64,000 nucleotides of DNA from Firmicutes bacterium HGW-Firmicutes-15 (GTDB lineage Bacteria; Bacillota; Syntrophomonadia; Syntrophomonadales; Syntrophomonadaceae). The DNA is taken from NCBI GenBank assembly GCA_002840245.1, contig PHAA01000015.1, positions 28,808 through 92,807 of the forward strand. Direction: 5' to 3'. The notes under the pieces are model-generated. The model did no database searches. It saw only the letters and a list, made by a program, of their open reading frames with translations, and was not told the origin of the DNA. Made by a program: the position numbers and the translations under genes. This document shows positions 13,469 through 64,000 of the stretch, one piece after another. Every line of letters begins with the position of its first letter. The stretch's first letter is position 1.

Positions 13469-13620
13469 TTTGCTTCCCTTCCCTCAATCGTTTGAGATAT
13501 TTATTATCAAATCCATCTCAGTCTGTCTTTGTGTACAGATTATCACTAGTTTATTAAGCCGGTAGGGGATATTTATTAAATTTGCCTTTAAGGATTGTAA
13601 AAGAATTGTAAATGAAGAAA

Positions 13621-13890
13621 TCGACAAGCTGCCAGCGCGAGCAAAAAAGGCGAAGAGCAAGGCTTGCAAAAATACCGTGCAACCTTATTATGTGAACGAA
13701 GTGAACACCGGGAGTACCCGTAGGGTGATTGAGGCGATTAAGGTATAGGGACGGACCGTCTGCTTCAAATTAAGGTCACGTCCCCGGCATAATGTATGGC
13801 GACACACCCCTTAAGGGGAATGTCCCCGTATGAAGTACGTCGATTGAACGGAATTTTTGCATAACGCAGCTATTCGCTTTTTTTGACGGT
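13621..13890 (+). repeat. Mosaic palindromic intergenic repeat, copy A (long form), in the pstS-pstC intercistronic gap
   Basis: It shares the blocks tcgacaag, gtgattgaggcg, gtacgtcgattgaacgg, ataacgcagc and attcgcttttttt-gacgg with copy B (49538-49688), and agtacccgtagggtga with copy C. It carries an extra segment of about 100 nt with small GC hairpins such as ccccttaagggg. Confidence 0.65.
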
Positions 13891-13896
13891 CTGTGG

Positions 13897-32191: not shown

Positions 32192-32200
32192 TCTTTCTTC

Positions 32201-32285
32201 CAGGCTGATGACAGGAGTGAAGATCAAGACATGAGAAGGCCCGTTCAATTGAACGGGCCTTTTGATATAACGCTGAGCGACGTCC
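32201..32285 (+). repeat. Mosaic repeat, copy D (short, collapsed form), containing a perfect 22-nt palindrome terminator
   Basis: aggctgatgacaggagtgaagatcaagacatgagaa almost matches copy B at 49567-49602. The core has collapsed to ggcccgttcaattgaacgggcc (32238-32259) followed by tttt. It lies between convergent genes. Confidence 0.65.
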
Positions 32286-42004: not shown

Positions 42005-45000
42005 TTAGGGCTGTGGTATTAATACGTCAGTCCAGGGAAATGTAGTAGGGCCACCTTGTTGGGTGGTGATTGTAAAAGTGTTAGCGTTAGTATCCATGCT
42101 AAAGCCAGTAATATAGCGACATCCAGTCTTTACCCACTGCTGTTTAAACGAATCGTCACTATTGAAAGCTACAATGTAAACAGGATAAGGGTAAGGATTA
42201 TTGGAATCATCATATAGGAAGTATTTGTACTTGCCCCAAGTAAATCCGTAGTTGGCACCGTACAAATTACTGCTGGGTGGAGGAGGCTGACTGCCTCCTC
42301 CCAGAACCGGATCACCAAGTACTACCGTGATGGTATAGACATTGATGGTTCCATCTTCCGCTTTGACAGCTAACTTATCGCCAAATAGCATGGTGTCCGT
42401 TGAGCTTTTGGCGGTGGCAGTGTCAAATCCGGTTTGATCATCTATGGTCGTTCCTGTTATGACTACCTTCCACGAGGCCTGGGCATGCTTGGTCAGATTC
42501 GCCAGGAAGGTTGTCACGGTGACATTGGTGTTAATCACAGTTGAAGCAGCGACTATGGTGTTGCCGGTATCATCTACTGTATAATGACTTGCTGCAGTAG
42601 TTACTGTAGCATCATTGCTTAGCCGCCTTATCGTCAAGTTGTAGTTGCCTTGAGTAGTTCCGTCCTGAGCTGTTACCTGGATGTAACTAAGGTTGTCTCC
42701 TACCACCAAGTTTATTAGTTGGGCTATCTCGGTAGTATAGCCGCTATCGCTATACAACTTCCAATTGGCATCAGGACTAACACTTACGTCTACAGTTAGG
42801 CTGCTTATGTTATTGGCTACGCTTGCGGTTATATTGTTCCCGCTTATGCTGCCTCCTGCCGGGCTGTTTACTCCTGTTACTACACAGGTTGATGAGGTTG
42901 CTCGGGTAACTATCAGGTTGTATAATCCTTGAGTAGTTCCATCCTGGGCTATTACCTTGATATAACTCTGGTTGCTCCCTACGATCAGATTCATCTGTTT
43001 ACTTGTTATCTCGACTAGATAGGCATCATCGCTGAACAGCTTCCAAGTGGCATCAGGGCTTACACTTACGTCTACGGTCAGGTTGCTGATGTTATTGGCT
43101 ACGCTTGCGGTTATATTGTTCCCGGTTATGCTGCCTCCCGCCGGACTAGTTACTCCTGTTACTACACATTCTGATGAGCCTGCTACTGCTGCTGTTGCTG
43201 CACTAGTTACAGTACCAGAGTAGCTGCCCGTACCTATTGCGGCTACTTTAATAAACTTAGTTGCATCGCCTGCAACTGGTGTGTATTTGTTTGTTGTTGC
43301 TCCCACAATGTCAGCATAGGTGCCAGATTCTGTAGCGCATATCATCCATTGATAACTTACTGTAGCATTTGCTGGGGTCAATGCACCGGCTGTTAATTCA
43401 GCGCCAACTTTTGCTGTACCGCTTGTAGTGGTAATAGCACTTACCCCTATAGTTGCATTGGTTTCACTATCATTACTATTAGGGGCTGGATCTGGCTGAA
43501 GGGCTTCCTGTGCCGCTTGGCTCAGTTCCTGCTGTAAATCTTGCAGTTGCTGCTGTAGGTCTTGTTTAACTTGTTCAGTAAGCTGTATGCCACTGGATTC
43601 CAAGCCCATTAGCACTACATCCAGCATGTTCTGTACTTGTTCTTCCTGTTTTTCTTCGACCGGTTGGTCAGGTATTTCCAATATCATTTCCACTAGCGGA
43701 GGTGGTGCAGCTTCCTTATTCTTATCTATTTGCAAGGCAGTATTAATCACCCAGCCCTGCACATTACCAAAGGCCTGTTTATCCTGCTCACTCATCTTGG
43801 TATCTGGTCCGGCGGTTCCTCCCTGGCCAATTCCGCTGCTCGTACCTCCAACCAGAGGCACTGCATCTCCAATCATGCCTCTTACATCAACATTTCCGGT
43901 AAGACAGCTTACATTACAAGTCCCGTCCTTATTTACGCTTACTAATATAAAGGTTCCTCTTACAGCAGCCACGCCCCAGGGCATGTCCACTGTCATTCTT
44001 ACCTTTTTTGTCTGTGCAGTCTGATACCAGGGGGCCTGGTTGTCAGCAATAAATTGCTTGCTGTCAAGTGATGCCAGCAAGGGGGAGTTAGCTCTAGCCT
44101 GCTGTTTTTTTGTGGATTCATGTTTAGTAGCCAGGGCTCCAAATACTGTCCCTTTTTTCAGGTCTATGTCGACATTCTCTACTGAGGTTCCGCTGAAACC
44201 GTCATTTTTTATGTAGGCTCTGCCGATAGATTCTTTTATGTTAATCTCGGTATTTTCTTTTATGAGGACACTACTGCCATCAGGATAGAATATGCTGGCA
44301 CTGGCGTTGGCTCCTGTTATTATGGTATCTCCCAAATATACGGAGCTATCATTCTGAAGTGGGGTAGTAGCTCCATTGCGTGTAAGTTTAATGTCTCCTT
44401 TAACGTCTTTTATGGTTCCTTTCAGGCTGACTGTATAGAGTCCAGGGTCCTTGGTCAACAGGGTTCCTAATGCCCGGGCGAGGCTTCCCCGCTTCATCAC
44501 TGCATCGGGGTATATTTGCTTGCCATCCGCAGACAAGCCTATCATCTCTGCTGCCAGGGCAACTGCCATTTCTCCTGCCGCCCAGTGGTTTTGCTCCATG
44601 TCATTAAGTACGGGAAGGGGGACTCGATCTTTTTGGGTTGATAATCTCATTATTAGGGCTATTCCCTGAGCCCGGGTTAGTTTATCTTCGGGTTTATAGG
44701 TTCCATCGGGGAATCCTTTTAGATAGCCGACTTTGGTTGCTGCTGCTATGTTGGCTGCTGCCCAGTGATCAGCTTGTACGTCGGGAAATCCGGTCTCGGT
44801 TACTGCGGGTGTCTCAAGTCCGGTAGCCTTTACTAGTACTACTGCGGCCTGAGCCCGGGTTAATCCTTCTTCAGGGTGAAAATTACCGTCCGGAAAACCG
44901 CTTAATATCTTCCGGTTGCTTAGGTAGTTTATAAAAACTGAGTTGTTGTTCGTGGATGTTACGTCTGGGAAAATCTGTTTTAGCTGCTCGGTTTTTGTTG

Positions 45001-45109
45001 CAGCAGATGTATCCACTTGCTTATCAGTAGCGGATGCTAAGGTGCTAAAGCTCAGTAGCAATAATATAACCAAAGCAGTCAGCAGCAATGGCTTCTTCTT
45101 TTGATTCAT
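42005..45109 (-). CDS. Large SLH-anchored surface protein (3 SLH, a FecR-like region, tandem cadherin-like beta-sandwich repeats)
   Basis: Signal peptide, three SLH repeats (GFPDGNFHPEEGLTRAQAA, GFPDGTYKPEDKLTRAQG, NHWAAGEM) and a Q/E-rich linker. Two near-identical 94-aa repeats follow. Confidence 0.85.
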   Translation of the reverse strand: MNQKKKPLLLTALVILLLLSFSTLASATDKQVDTSAATKTEQLKQIFPDVTSTNNNSVFINYLSNRKILSGFPDGNFHPEEGLTRAQAAVVLVKATGLETPAVTETGFPDVQADHWAAANIAAATKVGYLKGFPDGTYKPEDKLTRAQGIALIMRLSTQKDRVPLPVLNDMEQNHWAAGEMAVALAAEMIGLSADGKQIYPDAVMKRGSLARALGTLLTKDPGLYTVSLKGTIKDVKGDIKLTRNGATTPLQNDSSVYLGDTIITGANASASIFYPDGSSVLIKENTEINIKESIGRAYIKNDGFSGTSVENVDIDLKKGTVFGALATKHESTKKQQARANSPLLASLDSKQFIADNQAPWYQTAQTKKVRMTVDMPWGVAAVRGTFILVSVNKDGTCNVSCLTGNVDVRGMIGDAVPLVGGTSSGIGQGGTAGPDTKMSEQDKQAFGNVQGWVINTALQIDKNKEAAPPPLVEMILEIPDQPVEEKQEEQVQNMLDVVLMGLESSGIQLTEQVKQDLQQQLQDLQQELSQAAQEALQPDPAPNSNDSETNATIGVSAITTTSGTAKVGAELTAGALTPANATVSYQWMICATESGTYADIVGATTNKYTPVAGDATKFIKVAAIGTGSYSGTVTSAATAAVAGSSECVVTGVTSPAGGSITGNNITASVANNISNLTVDVSVSPDATWKLFSDDAYLVEITSKQMNLIVGSNQSYIKVIAQDGTTQGLYNLIVTRATSSTCVVTGVNSPAGGSISGNNITASVANNISSLTVDVSVSPDANWKLYSDSGYTTEIAQLINLVVGDNLSYIQVTAQDGTTQGNYNLTIRRLSNDATVTTAASHYTVDDTGNTIVAASTVINTNVTVTTFLANLTKHAQASWKVVITGTTIDDQTGFDTATAKSSTDTMLFGDKLAVKAEDGTINVYTITVVLGDPVLGGGSQPPPPSSNLYGANYGFTWGKYKYFLYDDSNNPYPYPVYIVAFNSDDSFKQQWVKTGCRYITGFSMDTNANTFTITTQQGGPTTFPWTDVLIPQP
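42605..43168 (-). repeat. Tandem duplication, 2 x 282 bp, inside the SLH surface-protein gene
   Basis: The Cys codons that open each unit lie at 43166-43168 and 42884-42886, exactly 282 bp apart. The units share long identical runs such as tattggctacgcttgcggttatattgttccc. Confidence 0.85.
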
Positions 45110-49170: not shown

Positions 49171-49357
49171 GACAACATTCCTCCGCCTCGGTAATATTAG
49201 CCTAGGCTGTTATTCCTGAGTATATTTATATATTTTTATTATGTAAAGATAAATAAGTGCTATTGCTTAGCAGGGCATTCGTTGCCAGTTGCGAGGTTAT
49301 TTGCTGTTGCCTGTGATATAATAATTAATGGTAATAAGATCTAGGAGGATAAAAATT

Positions 49358-49522
49358 ATGGAAGAGAATAACAAGGGCTTGGAAATAATGCGCCAACTTA
49401 TTGAGAAGAAAAAGGAAAAGAGCGCATCCCAGGGTAGCATGAAGCGTGGCCCGGAAGATAGGTTCGGTACTAGTAGCCCCGGCAATAAGAAGAATAAAAA
49501 AGGTGGTCTTCCGCCCAAATAA
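49358..49522 (+). CDS. Small basic 54-aa protein (hypothetical)
   Basis: An AGGAGG RBS lies 8 nt before the ATG at 49358. The C-terminus is K/G-rich (GNKKNKKGGLPPK). Confidence 0.45.
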   Translation: MEENNKGLEIMRQLIEKKKEKSASQGSMKRGPEDRFGTSSPGNKKNKKGGLPPK

Positions 49523-49705
49523 ACGAAGTATTCGTTTCAGCTTGTCGACAAAGTCGGCAAGCTGCTAGGCTGATGACAGGAGTGAAGATTAAGGCATGAG
49601 AAAAGCTCGTGATTGAGGCGTACAAAGGTACGTTGATTGAGCGGGGTTTTTGAAATAACGCCGAGATTCGCTTTTGTCAACGGCCTGAAAACGAAGGATT
49701 CGTTT
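49521..49705 (+). repeat. Mosaic repeat, copy B: 151-nt core flanked by a duplicated 17-nt hairpin
   Basis: The flanks are aaacgaagtattcgttt (49521-49537) and aaacgaaggattcgttt (49689-49705). The core shares blocks with copies A, C (inverted) and D. Confidence 0.75.
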
Positions 49706-49817
49706 GGTGTTTTCTTAGACGTCACACAGGGGGAGGTTTCTACCGTCCCCTGTGTGTGCTAGTTTATAAAAAAGCTGAAAATATGGATATAGGCTAATGC
49801 TAAACTGAAAGGGAGTA

Positions 49818-51990
49818 GTGTCTCTGGAACAGATATTTAACCGTATATTTGCAGAAGCACATATATCAATCAAACAAATAAAGGCGGTAGCCCAATTATT
49901 AGATGATAGTAATACCGTACCGTTTATCGCTCGTTATCGTAAAGAGATGACCGGAGGTCTTGACGAAAACGAGCTTCGTTTAATTGAAGATAGGCTAAAA
50001 TTTCACCGTAACCTGGAGCAAAGGAAAGAAGAAGTAATCCGTCTTATAGATGGACAGGGCAAGCTCACCGATGATTTGGTGACGCAAATTAGCAAGGCTA
50101 CAAAAACTGTCGAGATCGATGACATCTATCTTCCATTTAGGCAGAAACGAAAAACTCGGGCATCGATGGCTCGTGATAAAGGACTTCAAGCTTTAGCGGA
50201 CTACCTGCTTAATTTCCCTTCCGAAGGGAATCTTGAGGAGGAAGCACTACGGTATCTCTCCGATCAGGTTCTAACAATTGAAGCCGCTTTGCAGGGAGCT
50301 AAGGACATCATTGCTGAGCAAGTGTCTGAGGACGCAACAGCCCGGCGTTGGATACGAGAATATAGCCGCAAACATGGAGTAATAGTGGTTAGCACCAAAG
50401 ATGTAAAGACTGAATCACCATACCGTATGTATTATGACTACCAGGAAGCAGTTGCTAAGATTCCTCCCCATAGAATATTAGCTATCAACCGGGGCGAAAG
50501 AGAGGAAATACTCAGGGTCTCGATCTCCGTTGGGGTAGAAAAAATTATCGACTTTTTAAATAAACTCTATGTGAAACCTGATATCACCGCTTCTTATGTC
50601 ACTGGAGCCATAGAAGACAGTTACTCCAGGCTCATTAAGCCATCTATTGAACGGGATCTGAGGAATGAACTAAGTGAAAAAGCGGAAGAACATGCTATAA
50701 ATATCTTTGCGAAAAACCTGGGTAATCTTCTCCTACAGCCTCCAATTAAAGGGCAGGTCATTCTAGGCCTGGATCCAGCTTACCGTACTGGCTGCAAATG
50801 GACTGTAGTGGATGAAACTGGAAAAATGCTGGAGGTGGGAGTGGTATACCCAACACCACCCCAAAAGAAAGTGGCTGAGGCAGAGGCGGTTCTTCTAAAA
50901 CGCATGCATTGTAGCAAATATGATTAAGAGTCAGAATCTACAAATTCCCTATACTATCGTTAGCGAAGCCGGTGCCAGTGTATATTCAGCATCCAAGCTA
51001 GCCGGCCTTGAATTTCCTAACCTGGATGTGTCGGAACGGAGCGCCATATCTATAGCCCGGCGGGTACAAGATCCTTTGGCAGAACTGGTGAAAATAGAGC
51101 CTAAGGCAATTGGTGTAGGACAGTATCAGCACGACCTTCCTCAGAAAAAATTGGACGATAACCTGACTGCAGTTGTAGAATCAGCTGTAAACCAAGTGGG
51201 TGTAGACCTTAACACCGCTTCAGCATCGCTGTTATCCTATGTTTCAGGGCTTTCTTCTACTGTGGCCAACAACATTGTAGAATACCGCGATATCAACGGC
51301 AAATTTAAGAACCGAAAACAGTTACTGAAGGTAACGAAGTTAGGCCCCAAGTCATTTCAGCAAGCTGCCGGGTTCCTGCGTATATATGATGGATGCAGCA
51401 TTATTGGCGACCACAAAGGAGCAACAGCAGCCTTAATTGTACCGCTTGCGGTACATCAGGAGTCCCCCAAGGGGGAAGTGCCCGGAGGGTTTAACCCGCT
51501 TGATGCCACAGCCATTCACCCGGAATCCTATGATCTGGCGATGAAGGTACTTGAAGTTACTGCAGCAATACCTGCGGAAATAGGGCAAGCTTCATTGGCA
51601 GCAAAACTAGAAGCGCTGGACATTAAAATCCTGGCTCCAAGCCTAGGGGCAGGGGAGCCAACCTTAAGAGATGTGATTGATTGTTTGCTAAAGCCACATC
51701 GTGATCCACGGGAGGATTTACCTCTGCCCATTTTCAGGACTGACGTACTAAGCATCGAAGACCTGGCTACAGGCATGTCCATGACTGGGACTGTAAGAAA
51801 CGTAGTTGACTTCGGAGCGTTTGTGGATATCGGGGTGAAGAGCGATGGATTAGTTCATCTGTCCGAGCTGGCTGACCGTTATATTCGTCATCCTATGGAA
51901 ATTGTCTCGGTTGGGGATGTGGTAACAGTACGGGTCTTGTCGATTGACCGGGAACGGGGAAAAGTATCCCTATCCATGAAATCTATCTAA
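49818..51990 (+). pseudogene. tex: Tex (S1-domain transcription accessory protein), split into two frames, with an internal deletion and an in-frame insertion
   Basis: The Tex_N motif TVPFIARYRKEMTGGLDE, the YqgF region LGLDPAYRTGCKWTVVDETG, then VSEAGASVYSAS, GVGQYQHD, HhH regions and the C-terminal S1 (GTVRNVVDFGAFVDIG) are all present. ORF 1 stops at 50927 and ORF 2 continues in the +1 frame from 50920. The canonical IAIGNGTASRE segment is missing. Confidence 0.8.
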
Positions 51991-54573: not shown

Positions 54574-54815
54574 GACCCGCCGAATTATTCAGCGGGTCTC
54601 AGATCGTCAAAAAAGCCCAATAGCGGCGTTATTAATAAAAGCCCGTTCAATCAACGTACCTATGTACGCCTCAATCACGGGCTTTTATTAATGCCTTGCT
54701 CTTGCGACATCAATTGTACCGCACGCGGTACATCAGTAGTACCCGTAGGGTGAACTTTTTTGCTCGGCCTGACTTTATCGGCACCCTGTGACCCGCCGAA
54801 TTCATTTAGCGGGTC
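54574..54815 (-). repeat. Mosaic repeat, copy C (inverted relative to B): 191-nt core flanked by a duplicated 25/26-nt terminator hairpin
   Basis: The flanks are gacccgccgaattattcagcgggtc (54574-54598) and gacccgccgaattcatttagcgggtc (54790-54815). The reverse complement of the core aligns block by block with copy B. Confidence 0.75.
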
Positions 54816-54820
54816 TTTTT
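54790..54820 (+). terminator. Rho-independent terminator of the DEAD-box helicase gene (the distal copy of the duplicated hairpin)
   Basis: gacccgc-loop-gcgggtc followed by ttttt. The proximal copy at 54574-54598 has no T-run. Confidence 0.7.
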
Positions 54821-54999
54821 GTATGTTGTTTAATTAGTAGTCTGATCTAAAGAGTAGAGATTGTGGATTAACCAGTTATGACTCCGGAGTAGATAATATT
54901 GCGAGTGAAAGATAGAAGATAATGTCGTATAATAATTAAACATTTAATAATAATTTCCATCATTGATTTAAATAAAAAGGTTGGTTTGGGGGAAAGTCA

Positions 55000-56124
55000 A
55001 TGATTCGGCTTCCGGTAAGTGAGTTGTTTAGCGGTATGGTGGTTGGGCGGGCCATCATTGATGCTGAACAGCGGGTACTTCTATCTAGCGGGCAGGTTCT
55101 GACCGAATATTTCATAAAGCGGATTGGTGACCTGGGCGTTGCCGCGGTTTTTATAAATGACCAGTTGGGTTTGGAAGAGTCACCTCCACCGGTAAGTGAT
55201 TCTATAATCTTGCAAGCAACTCATACTCTAAAAAGCAGCTATCAAAAGTGTTTGAAAACTGGTCGCCTACAGATAGGAGCAGTAAAGAAGCAAGTGGACT
55301 GCATGATAGATGAGTTAATTACTCATGGTAATGCTATGGTAGGAATGGCTGATATTAAAAACTATGATGACTACACCTATCAGCATAGTGTTAATGTTTG
55401 TGTTCTGGCCCTCATGTTAGGCATTAGTAAGGGATACAACCGCGCTCAACTGCAAAAACTGGGGTTAGGTGCTTTGTTACACGATATCGGCAAGGTTACA
55501 ATCCCTATCGAGATTCTGAATAAGCCAAGTGTTTTGAATAGCGAAGAGAGAACAATAATCATGAGCCATACATGGGAAGGCTTTAATATGATTAAAAGCT
55601 CTGGACAGGTTTCACTGCTCTCGGCTCATGTTGCTTTGCAGCACCATGAACATATAGACGGAAATGGCTATCCTCGGAAGATAAGGGGAGATTCTATTCA
55701 TGAATTTGCTCAAATAACAACAGTTGCTGACATATACGATGCTCTGGTGTCGGATCGCCCCTACCGGACTGGCTTTAGCAACCATGAGGCTCTGGATATA
55801 ATTGAAAAGGGTGAAGGTACGCAAATATCAGCTTCCTTAGTCGAATTGCTTCGCGTCCATGTTAAAATATGCCCGGTAGGTACTGTGGTACTCCTTTCTA
55901 CAGGAGATACTGCGCTGGTTACAGGAGAAAACACTGCTGACCCCAAAAAACCACGGGTCAAATTGCTGTTTGACCAAAATCAAAAGGCCAATACGTTGCA
56001 TCATATGGTGGATCTGGCTTCATATGAGACGGTCTCCATTTGTAGAATGTTTTCGACTGAAGATGCAGCTCTTGTTATATCCCGCTATCTAGCTATCCGC
56101 AACCTGAAGACCTCTACCGCGTAA
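55000..56124 (+). CDS. HD-GYP domain c-di-GMP phosphodiesterase
   Basis: HSVNVCVLAL...LLHDIGKVTIP...HHEHIDGNGYPRK...DIYDALVSDRPYR. Confidence 0.85.
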   Translation: MIRLPVSELFSGMVVGRAIIDAEQRVLLSSGQVLTEYFIKRIGDLGVAAVFINDQLGLEESPPPVSDSIILQATHTLKSSYQKCLKTGRLQIGAVKKQVDCMIDELITHGNAMVGMADIKNYDDYTYQHSVNVCVLALMLGISKGYNRAQLQKLGLGALLHDIGKVTIPIEILNKPSVLNSEERTIIMSHTWEGFNMIKSSGQVSLLSAHVALQHHEHIDGNGYPRKIRGDSIHEFAQITTVADIYDALVSDRPYRTGFSNHEALDIIEKGEGTQISASLVELLRVHVKICPVGTVVLLSTGDTALVTGENTADPKKPRVKLLFDQNQKANTLHHMVDLASYETVSICRMFSTEDAALVISRYLAIRNLKTSTA

Positions 56125-56361
56125 ATTATTACTGGCATTAGCTGTCTAATAACCGAGGGGACATTTCAGGTTTCCCTCTAATAAGGCCCTGAGGGGTATT
56201 GTTGCATTCAAAGGGTTTGATAAGTATTTCAGACCGTGCTTGCTGAAAGGGGTAAATCATAATATTATCTAGTTATGAGGATCAAAATCATCATCATCGC
56301 TGGTGATAGGTGAGATATTTGATACTTATTTGTGGTTATTATAGTTGGAAAGGATTAATAA

Positions 56362-63410: not shown

Positions 63411-64000
63411 ATGATAAGGAGAAAAATGGGACAGCTGGGAGCGATAATGCTATTTATGTTCAGCATAACCTTAATCCTGGCCAATCCCGCCAAAGCTGCA
63501 GATGCGGTGATCAAGGCCGAATCCGTCCCAACACTGGTATCCCAGTTTAAAGATGTCCAATCCACTGATTCTAACGCCATATTTATTAGCTATTTAGCAG
63601 GAAAAGGCATTATAAATGGCTTTCCCGACGGAGGTTTTCATCCAGGTGAAGGACTAACCCGGGCCCAGGCCGCCGTAGTTTTGGTAAAGGCCGTCGGGCT
63701 AAACACCCCCACAGTAACTGAGACCGGATTTCCCGACGTACAAACTGATCACTGGGCAGCAGCCAACATAGCAGCGGCAACCAAAGCCGGCTACCTAAAG
63801 GGATTCCCCGACGGAACCTATAAACCAGAAGATAAAATAACTCGGGCTCAAGGAATAGCCCTAATAATGAGATTATCTGCCCAAAAGGACCGGACTCCCC
63901 TTCCCGTACTTAATGACATGGAGCAAAGCCACTGGGCGGCAGGAGAAATGGCAGTTGCTCTGGCAGCAGAAATGATAGGCTTGTCTGCGGATGGCAAGCA
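63411..64000 (+). CDS. SLH-domain surface protein, 3'-partial (runs off the window); paralog of 42005-45109
   Basis: Absent from the ORF track because no stop is reached. It starts MIRRKMGQLGAIMLFMFSITLILANPAKA, then has SLH repeats nearly identical to those of the 1034-aa protein (GFPDVQTDHWAAANIAAATKAGYLKGFPDGTYKPEDKITRAQGIALIMRL...). Confidence 0.85.
   Translation, partial: MIRRKMGQLGAIMLFMFSITLILANPAKAADAVIKAESVPTLVSQFKDVQSTDSNAIFISYLAGKGIINGFPDGGFHPGEGLTRAQAAVVLVKAVGLNTPTVTETGFPDVQTDHWAAANIAAATKAGYLKGFPDGTYKPEDKITRAQGIALIMRLSAQKDRTPLPVLNDMEQSHWAAGEMAVALAAEMIGLSADGK

Follow-up and report, generated by a model that had tools for sequence, protein, structure and literature searches.

IS1272 and TnSha1, IS1182-family elements of staphylococci, target terminator hairpins without any sequence consensus and in both orientations (PMC4923244, PMC5678879), and the insertion sites of ISCbo5 and ISBma2, which belong to the same family, are hairpins at the ends of genes (PMC3098183). 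Wan et al. have drawn the target as a cruciform (Fig. 13 of PMC5678879). MITEs of 160–169 bp that derive from the IS1182 family and are related to ISMac2 are described from Methanosarcina acetivorans (PMC3852290). Outside the family, IS1630 (IS30 family) of Mycoplasma fermentans is credited with variable-length duplication of terminator-like inverted repeats in the title of Calcutt et al. 1999 (cited in PMC3317919 and PMC2853133), and duplications of 16–26 bp are reported from M. fermentans M64.

We analysed a window (the whole stretch of DNA under study) of 64,000 nt from Firmicutes bacterium HGW-Firmicutes-15 (GCA_002840245.1, contig PHAA01000015.1, positions 28,808–92,807, forward strand), in which a structured 150-nt core is flanked on both sides by the same hairpin. 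We put at about 0.85 the probability that this core is a MITE, namely a non-autonomous derivative, arisen by deletion, of a clade of IS1182-family insertion sequences whose targets are terminator-like stem-loops, duplicated whole. Its likeness to IS1272 and TnSha1 lies in a hairpin target chosen by structure; IS1272, the closest published member of the family, replaces or partly deletes the stem-loop and makes no duplication, whereas the MITE of the window duplicates it whole, the outcome of 'pathway b' and not of pathway a in the model of Wan et al. The M. acetivorans MITEs are elements of the same kind, of ~150–170 bp with 25–26-bp inverted repeats, but they come from an archaeon, their direct repeats are of 0 or 4 bp, and no hairpin duplication is reported for them (PMC3852290). 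The likeness to IS1630 lies in the variable duplications, of 16–26 bp as reported, of inverted repeats presumed to be terminators; the transposase family and the ends differ, and the similarity appears convergent. REP/BIME, ERIC, Correia, RUP and bcr1 repeats are also short, abundant and hairpin-forming, lie at gene 3′ ends and may be co-transcribed in 3′-UTRs, but they have other enzymes (RAYT or others), other ends and other duplications (none or 2–5 bp), and none of them duplicates a locus-specific terminator hairpin. A literature search returned nothing useful on Syntrophomonas MITEs or on target-site duplication of terminator hairpins.

Element copies in the window and their flanking hairpins

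A family profile finds the element in exactly four places, which we call copies B, D, A and C, in agreement with an earlier note on this DNA that had seen blocks of the core at 49538–49688 recur at three other places. The features are as follows (IR, inverted repeat).

49521–49537, plus strand: proximal target hairpin of copy B, AAACGAAGTATTCGTTT, overlapping the stop of the ORF at 49328–49522; a T-run no longer stands behind it
49538–49687, plus strand: MITE copy B, full length (150 nt), from left IR CAGCTTGTCGACAAAGTC to right IR TTTTGTCAACGGCCTG; nhmmer E = 1.8e-40
49538–49564, plus strand: left terminal IR with the small hairpin hp1 (CAGCTTGTCGACAAAGTCGGCAAGCTG), matching the left end of a Geobacillus IS1182-family insertion sequence (IS) at 26 of 27 positions
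49609–49644, plus strand: apical motif GTGATTGAGGCGTAC-loop-GTACGTTGATTGAGCGG, invariant; its 7 base pairs form a stem beneath a 6x6 internal loop (GAUUGA/GAUUGA)
49689–49705, plus strand: distal target hairpin of copy B, AAACGAAGGATTCGTTT, followed by ggtgTTTTc
54600–54788, minus strand: MITE copy D, 189 nt including a nested mini-module of 48 nt at ~54705–54752
54790–54815, minus strand: target hairpin of copy D, 5′ side (GACCCGCTAAATGAATTCGGCGGGTC), followed by TTTTT when read on the plus strand
54574–54598, minus strand: target hairpin of copy D, 3′ side (GACCCGCTGAATAATTCGGCGGGTC), directly behind the stop of a DEAD-box helicase gene and orthologous to a single hairpin in a relative (L240)
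13614–13893, plus strand: MITE copy A, 5′-truncated, without the left IR and without an upstream hairpin
32193–32276, plus strand: MITE fragment C, both ends missing, apical motif deleted, no upstream hairpin

Copy B is laid out as cccaaat / AAACGAAGTATTCGTTT / CAGCTTGTCGAC...CAACGGCCTG / a single a (49688) / AAACGAAGGATTCGTTT / ggtgttttc. The earlier note had described its core as bracketed by a duplicated 17-nt hairpin, the upstream copy of which overlaps the stop codon of a small ORF and the distal copy of which alone is followed by a T-run, and each part of this description holds: the two 17-mers are one loop base apart, the proximal one overlaps the TAA at 49520–49522 that ends a 64-aa ORF (49328–49522), and a T-rich run stands behind the distal hairpin only. 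The hairpin itself is weak, with two G-C pairs, and a consensus scan does not call it as a terminator. Blocks of the core recur in the window far more often than chance would allow, GGCTGATGACAGGAGTGAAGAT occurring twice, where none is expected, and GTGATTGAGGCG exactly three times.

Copy D, whose hairpins were not named in the earlier note and are an addition to it, is bracketed by a duplicated 25/26-nt hairpin (GACCCGC...GCGGGTC) whose outer flanks, AAAAA- and -CTTTT, are those of what was once a bidirectional terminator. The profile matches copy D in two segments (54600–54704 and 54753–54788, minus strand) and copy A likewise (13614–13679 and 13830–13893), copy A carrying a reversed mini-module (~13677–13724) and a ~98-nt insert in its apical loop (13737–13834); the match to C is a single segment (32193–32276). 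Copies A and C are 5′-truncated or decayed. The four copies amount to a density of about one per 16–20 kb.

An allele with a single hairpin is available for the site of copy D. In the closest relative recovered (L240, JGI sample 3300037045; loci recovered in this work carry L numbers), in which the helicase is 95% identical at the amino acid level, a single hairpin, GACCCGCCGAATATTCAGCGGGTC, stands directly behind the helicase stop and has TTTTTT after it. This locus aligns with the window up to 54599, a single base beyond the hairpin at 54574–54598, and again from 56239; the comparison is not a clean one, as L240 is also without the HD-domain gene at 55000–56124 (Pfam HD_5) in addition to copy D and the second hairpin. 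The variable segment (54600–56238) thus measures 1.64 kb and has the duplicated hairpin as one of its borders, and in the window the HD-domain gene is placed between the DEAD-box helicase gene and a VTT-domain gene. A look-up of the exact helicase protein returned the same strain, with a contig break inside the element. For copy B we found no empty site: synteny in L243 is lost upstream of tex, and in L244 the small ORF abuts tex with no hairpin and no MITE. The case for copy B therefore rests on the pattern seen across the family. BLAST with reconstructed flanks recovered, among the loci, only orthologous filled sites (L003/L112 and L005/L025) or intergenic DNA that could not be aligned.

The genes around these copies have features of their own. 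The lysine-rich ORF of 64 aa ahead of copy B (MEENNKGLEIMRQLIEKKKEKSASQGS...) has no Pfam match; it is found with its frame intact and 79% nucleotide identity in a Syntrophomonas MAG (window 49283–49522 against L244 1616–1859) and is probably a real small gene. Downstream of copy B, tex is split into two ORFs (49818–50927 and 50920–51990, junction at ~50908); relative to L243 and L244, 62–63 nt that encode ...NVTAIAIGNGTASRETEQFVA..., a conserved YqgF-domain motif, are gone and the frame is shifted, so that this copy of tex is either a pseudogene or an assembly error. Elsewhere, the window holds a 388-nt inverted repeat, 88% complementary (44517–44904 and 63613–64000), which appears to consist of the 5′ parts of two paralogous genes and is not a mobile element. 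The first of these genes, when checked, proved to encode a 1034-aa SLH-domain surface protein (42005–45109, minus strand; Pfam SLH and Cadherin-like) and contains tandem repeats of 279–282 nt (42634–43184).

The family and its probable parent insertion sequences

A search of GTDB genomes with a 17-nt core pattern matched more than 118 genome loci. Among the matches listed, the loci belong overwhelmingly to Syntrophomonas/Syntrophomonadaceae MAGs and 80 are true copies; the whole collection should yield about 280 matches to the 17-nt core by chance, and this explains the stray ones in cyanobacteria, Bacteroidales and elsewhere. Copies measure 141–152 nt. A hairpin whose stem has 5 bp or more (mostly 8–12 bp as observed) lies within 0–3 nt of the 3′ end in 55 of the 66 listed copies with a recognisable 3′ end, and in 35 of these 55 it is followed by a T-rich run. 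As to the duplicated flanking hairpins that the earlier note had proposed to score, the same locus-specific hairpin also abuts the 5′ CAG in 29 of the listed copies. These pairs are 24 direct, three with an inverted loop (L079, L108, L111) and two ambiguous; the duplication is 14–30 nt long (median 24), eight pairs are identical over 23–30 nt, and the boundaries of the duplication coincide with the feet of the stem-loop. Copies without an upstream hairpin are typically 5′-truncated or old, as at the orthologous sites L003 and L112, whose flanks are ~81% identical.

Some loci depart from the simple arrangement. One (L022, 6783–7105) is a tandem array of the form hairpin-MITE-hairpin-MITE-hairpin, which probably arose by unequal exchange between duplicated hairpins. 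The orthologous sites L003 and L112 carry different MITE subfamilies ahead of the same terminator, which suggests re-insertion or replacement at the same hairpin. In three genome loci (L079, L108, L111) and one metagenome locus (L150) the two stems are alike and one loop is the reverse complement of the other, and in L090 and L091 the hairpin copies differ by compensatory changes on both arms of the stem; these loop flips and compensatory changes point to hairpin-templated correction or to loop inversion during or after insertion. One locus that had been considered as a copy with cargo (L101) was rejected, being a truncated copy beside a TetR gene, and no paired inverted repeats 1–3 kb apart were found in the 118 genome loci listed, where further matches to the motif arose by chance or are solo fragments. 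Many copies of this Syntrophomonadaceae-specific MITE lie on contigs labelled 'Acidobacteriota bacterium MAG166' or 'Deltaproteobacteria bacterium MAG206' (L008, L011, L018, L023, L028 and others, JBLNAX01...; L026 and L037, JBLMZJ01...), and these two bins are probably mislabelled or contaminated.

The ends of the element lead to its parents. A scan of metagenome contigs with the 5′ end motif revealed many elements of the layout 'hairpin|CAGnnTGTCGAyAAAGTC...' with unrelated interiors, including MITEs (L120, L135, L150, L192) that have the ends in common and a hairpin repeated 190–270 nt downstream. The inverted repeats that end the window element, CAGnnTGTCGACAAAGTC ... TTTGTCnACnnTCTG, also bound full-length ISs of 1.5–1.6 kb. 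One of them, a 1,632-bp IS on a metagenome contig (L137, 3505–5136), encodes a 459-aa protein that scores 454 bits against the NCBIfam model 'IS1182 family transposase' (cut-off 270) and matches Pfam DUF772, DDE_Tnp_1 and DDE_Tnp_1_6; this IS is bracketed by a perfect 27-nt hairpin duplication. Searches by tblastn added about four to five transposase-bearing elements with the same left end, and the ends CAGnnTGTCGACAAAGTC/TTTGTCnACnnTCTG are common to L137, L147, L189, L204 and L245. The transposase of L189 is 99% identical to a Geobacillus IS1182-family transposase, and L245 (331–1867), in the complete genome of a Geobacillus sp. (CP150187.1), is a 1,537-bp IS that encodes a 514-aa IS1182 transposase, is bracketed by a perfect 31-nt hairpin duplication and starts with CAGCTTGTCGACAAAGTCGACAAGCTG, identical at 26 of 27 positions to window 49538–49564. 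Every transposase-bearing element found with these ends belongs to the IS1182 family, and the target-site duplication is a whole stem-loop both in the 29 MITE copies (14–30 nt) and in the autonomous ISs (27 and 31 nt).

Because its ends are those of transposase-bearing IS1182-family ISs, we assign the window element to that clade as a MITE, and the hairpin duplication is the normal target-site duplication of the clade with CAGnnTGTCGACAAAGTC...TTTGTCnACnnTCTG ends. ISBma2/ISCbo5 (Clostridium novyi and C. botulinum group III) and the Geobacillus IS are like it in inserting at stem-loops behind genes, and the Geobacillus IS has the terminal IRs of copy B (26 of 27 nt identical at the 5′ end). 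The Geobacillus IS and L137 have duplicated a whole hairpin, whereas ISCbo5 is described only as lying within hairpin-forming inverted repeats at gene ends (PMC3098183). The window element differs from the autonomous ISs in being 150 nt long and without a transposase gene, and the autonomous elements examined are without its long covarying hairpin interior and invariant apical motif. The view that a non-autonomous element had duplicated a terminator-type hairpin is thus supported by the 29 locus-specific duplications, the single hairpin in L240 and the autonomous IS1182 relatives. The earlier note had recognised no named family; the element belongs to the IS1182 superfamily and, with its blocks matching an IS/MITE family that is already known, does not count as an element of a new kind.

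The same note had seen no transposase gene in the window, and for the IS1182 type this was confirmed by tblastn with an IS1182 transposase, which found none in the window and none in ~0.9 Mb of Syntrophomonadaceae loci. The best 120 homologues of the Geobacillus transposase include many Bacillota and none named Syntrophomonas. The MITEs of the Syntrophomonadaceae may be fossils there.

Smaller modules are nested in these elements. One family of ~46–48 nt, CACCCnnnGGGyACTACTGATGT-small hairpin-AyTATTAAGGTTG, is nested in MITEs in both orientations and occurs in the window at ~51431–51478, 54705–54752 and ~13677–13724; the first of these sits within the tex-like ORF at 50920–51990 as an in-frame insert of 48 nt (16 aa) that is missing from the orthologue in L243. 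Modules of this family are also found outside MITEs (L029, L056, L099, L110), and they are reminiscent of Rickettsia palindromic elements and of cyanobacterial small dispersed repeats. A further type of ~50 nt, GGTATrGGGACGGACCGTCTGCTTC...GGTCACGTCCCCGTA, is present in copy A as two related tandem units (13737–13834) exactly in the apical loop between the GATTGA motifs, and at the identical apical-loop position in L006, L017, L041, L110 and L112. Of the mosaic family proposed earlier, then, the recurring blocks are real; the mosaic look is due to nested mini-modules of 45–100 nt and not to a shuffling of blocks.

Conserved fold of the interior and other explanations

In an alignment of 27 clean copies (A1) the terminal inverted repeats are CAGnnTGTCGACAAAG at the 5′ end and CTTTTGTCGACnGTCTG at the 3′ end. 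The interior comprises an optional small 5′ hairpin, hp1 (CAGnnTGTCGA-yAAAG-TCGACAnnCTG, with covarying nn positions), and a long hairpin, hp2, with the invariant tip GYGAUUGAGGCGUAC-loop-GUACGUYGAUUGARCGG, in which two GAUUGA strands are opposed in a 6x6 internal loop and could form G.A/A.G/U.U/U.U/G.A/A.G pairs. The octamer tgattgag, noticed earlier as a direct repeat around a CGTAC/GTACG stem, is real and invariant across the family. The long hairpin proposed for the core also holds: the region 49521–49712 folds to -82.4 kcal/mol on the plus strand (z = -9.1) as against -49 on the minus strand. Across the alignment, 92.7% of cells are paired, compared to 82.6% in shuffles and ~40% in slid controls, compensatory changes occur at 26 of 53 pairs, and the observed values were reached by 0 of 500 shuffles. 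Cells with G.U outnumber those with A.C by 141:24, an excess that indicates constraint on the folding of one strand.

These properties, together with the retention of the element at both of the orthologous sites L003 and L112, are what would be expected of a structured non-coding RNA, either a 3′-UTR element or an sRNA family, kept by selection for its RNA function and mobile only secondarily or historically. We consider this explanation unlikely. The whole window gave no Rfam match at the gathering threshold, and a relaxed search of 49300–49900 (E up to 10) returned nothing relevant, only chance-level matches outside the element; a consensus promoter scan found no promoter-like site in or before copy B. 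Copies adjoin gene 3′ ends and lie between divergent genes in only 3 of 59 scorable contexts, but they point either way with respect to the gene beside them (21 sense, 16 antisense and 19 convergent, no bias), so that the host gene would often not make the sense-strand RNA. Furthermore, the ends are transposon inverted repeats common to transposase-bearing ISs, many copies are truncated or interrupted by modules, even in the apical loop (copy A, L015, L017, L018), and a conserved structure is also expected if an element this short is helped in its transposition by single-strand folding.

An intergenic, highly structured, strand-asymmetric and mosaic-looking repeat at gene 3′ ends also recalls REP/BIME elements, as the earlier note had remarked, and might be moved on single-stranded hairpins by a RAYT enzyme (HUH, IS200/IS605-like). 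This resemblance is superficial, and we regard such an origin as very improbable. True terminal inverted repeats and target duplications are foreign to HUH transposition, identical ends are found on elements encoding IS1182-family DDE transposases, and no conserved GTAG-type tetranucleotide stands beside a 20–40-nt palindromic unit. A lagging-strand single-stranded mechanism predicts a bias with respect to GC skew, whereas the observed orientations are 39:38. The lack of bias relative both to flanking genes and to local GC skew speaks against a single-stranded mechanism tied to one replication strand, and likewise against a role in the 3′-UTR for which the sense strand is obligatory.

Derivation from the IS30 family, suggested by the like target behaviour of IS1630 as it is reported (variable-length duplication of terminator-like inverted repeats), is just as improbable and was dropped: a motif scan found no IS30 signature in any locus, and the transposases found on elements with these ends are all of the IS1182 family. 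Least credible of all is that the two hairpins were there beforehand as tandem terminators, or are inverted repeats by chance, and that the core simply lies between them, for although the 17-mer of copy B is short and A+T-rich and its site has no clean empty counterpart, each of 29 loci has its own hairpin duplicated exactly at the ends of the element, many of them identical over 23–30 nt, the tandem array in L022 alternates hairpin and element, and the copy D site in L240 has a single hairpin.

Proposed mechanism and significance

The data for the IS1182-derived MITE fit 'pathway b' of the model of Wan et al., and we propose the following course of insertion. A DDE transposase of the IS1182-family clade, supplied in trans, would bind both terminal inverted repeats and would select inverted-repeat DNA able to form a stem-loop, with little preference for sequence; in practice the targets would be the intrinsic-terminator hairpins behind genes. 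Two strand transfers would then take place, one on each strand and each at an outer foot of the stem-loop, for which an extruded cruciform would be the simplest target. Gap repair would copy the entire stem-loop, so that the duplication equals the hairpin, whether of 17 nt (copy B), 25/26 nt (copy D) or 14–30 nt (the family as a whole). Transcripts of the upstream gene would read through the element and stop at the distal hairpin, leaving the coding sequence untouched; since the proximal hairpin is without a T-run and the distal one has it, read-through to the distal copy is to be expected.

Much of this has precedent, in the stem-loop-choosing ISs of the IS1182 family, the pathway of whole-stem-loop duplication already drawn for them, the MITEs derived from them and the behaviour of IS1630. 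What is new here is modest: an abundant and apparently undescribed MITE family restricted to the Syntrophomonadaceae, a large natural set of hairpin duplications precise to the feet, and a conserved structured core. Structure-directed targeting by IS1182-family transposases has been documented in only a few cases, from staphylococci and clostridia, and its mechanism so far exists as a drawn model. In the present family, dozens of independent insertions have duplication boundaries at the feet of hairpins that differ in length and sequence, just as one would predict if strand transfer took place at the outer feet of a cruciform. They also illustrate how a transposon can spread densely without breaking genes, by landing in terminators and regenerating the terminator on its far side. 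For annotation, the MITE accounts for a 'structured repeat' that is widespread in the genomes of Syntrophomonas and might, without this identification, be taken for a family of sRNAs, and it accounts as well for contig breaks at element sites.

The interior holds a further question. The invariant apical motif and the 141:24 excess are left unexplained by a plain double-stranded cut-and-paste or copy-and-paste model. Folding of one strand may help to unite the two ends where the element, as a duplex, is too short to bend; the fold and motif may mark a protein-binding site, or the fold may have a role at the level of RNA. Tentatively, and with the odds against it, we suggest that the apical hairpin and the strand-specific covariation mark a single-stranded form of one strand, DNA or RNA, for a dimeric protein, either as a requirement for mobilisation or as a domesticated 3′-UTR RNA. 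If the former is true, very short IS1182 derivatives would have a new requirement, namely hairpin folding that unites both ends; if the latter, a domesticated 3′-UTR RNA element would have been spread by a transposon. In either case, more than 50 natural insertions, with duplications precise to the feet, occasional loop inversions and compensatory stem changes, would constitute a data set on how a DDE transposase reads the structure of DNA and not its sequence.
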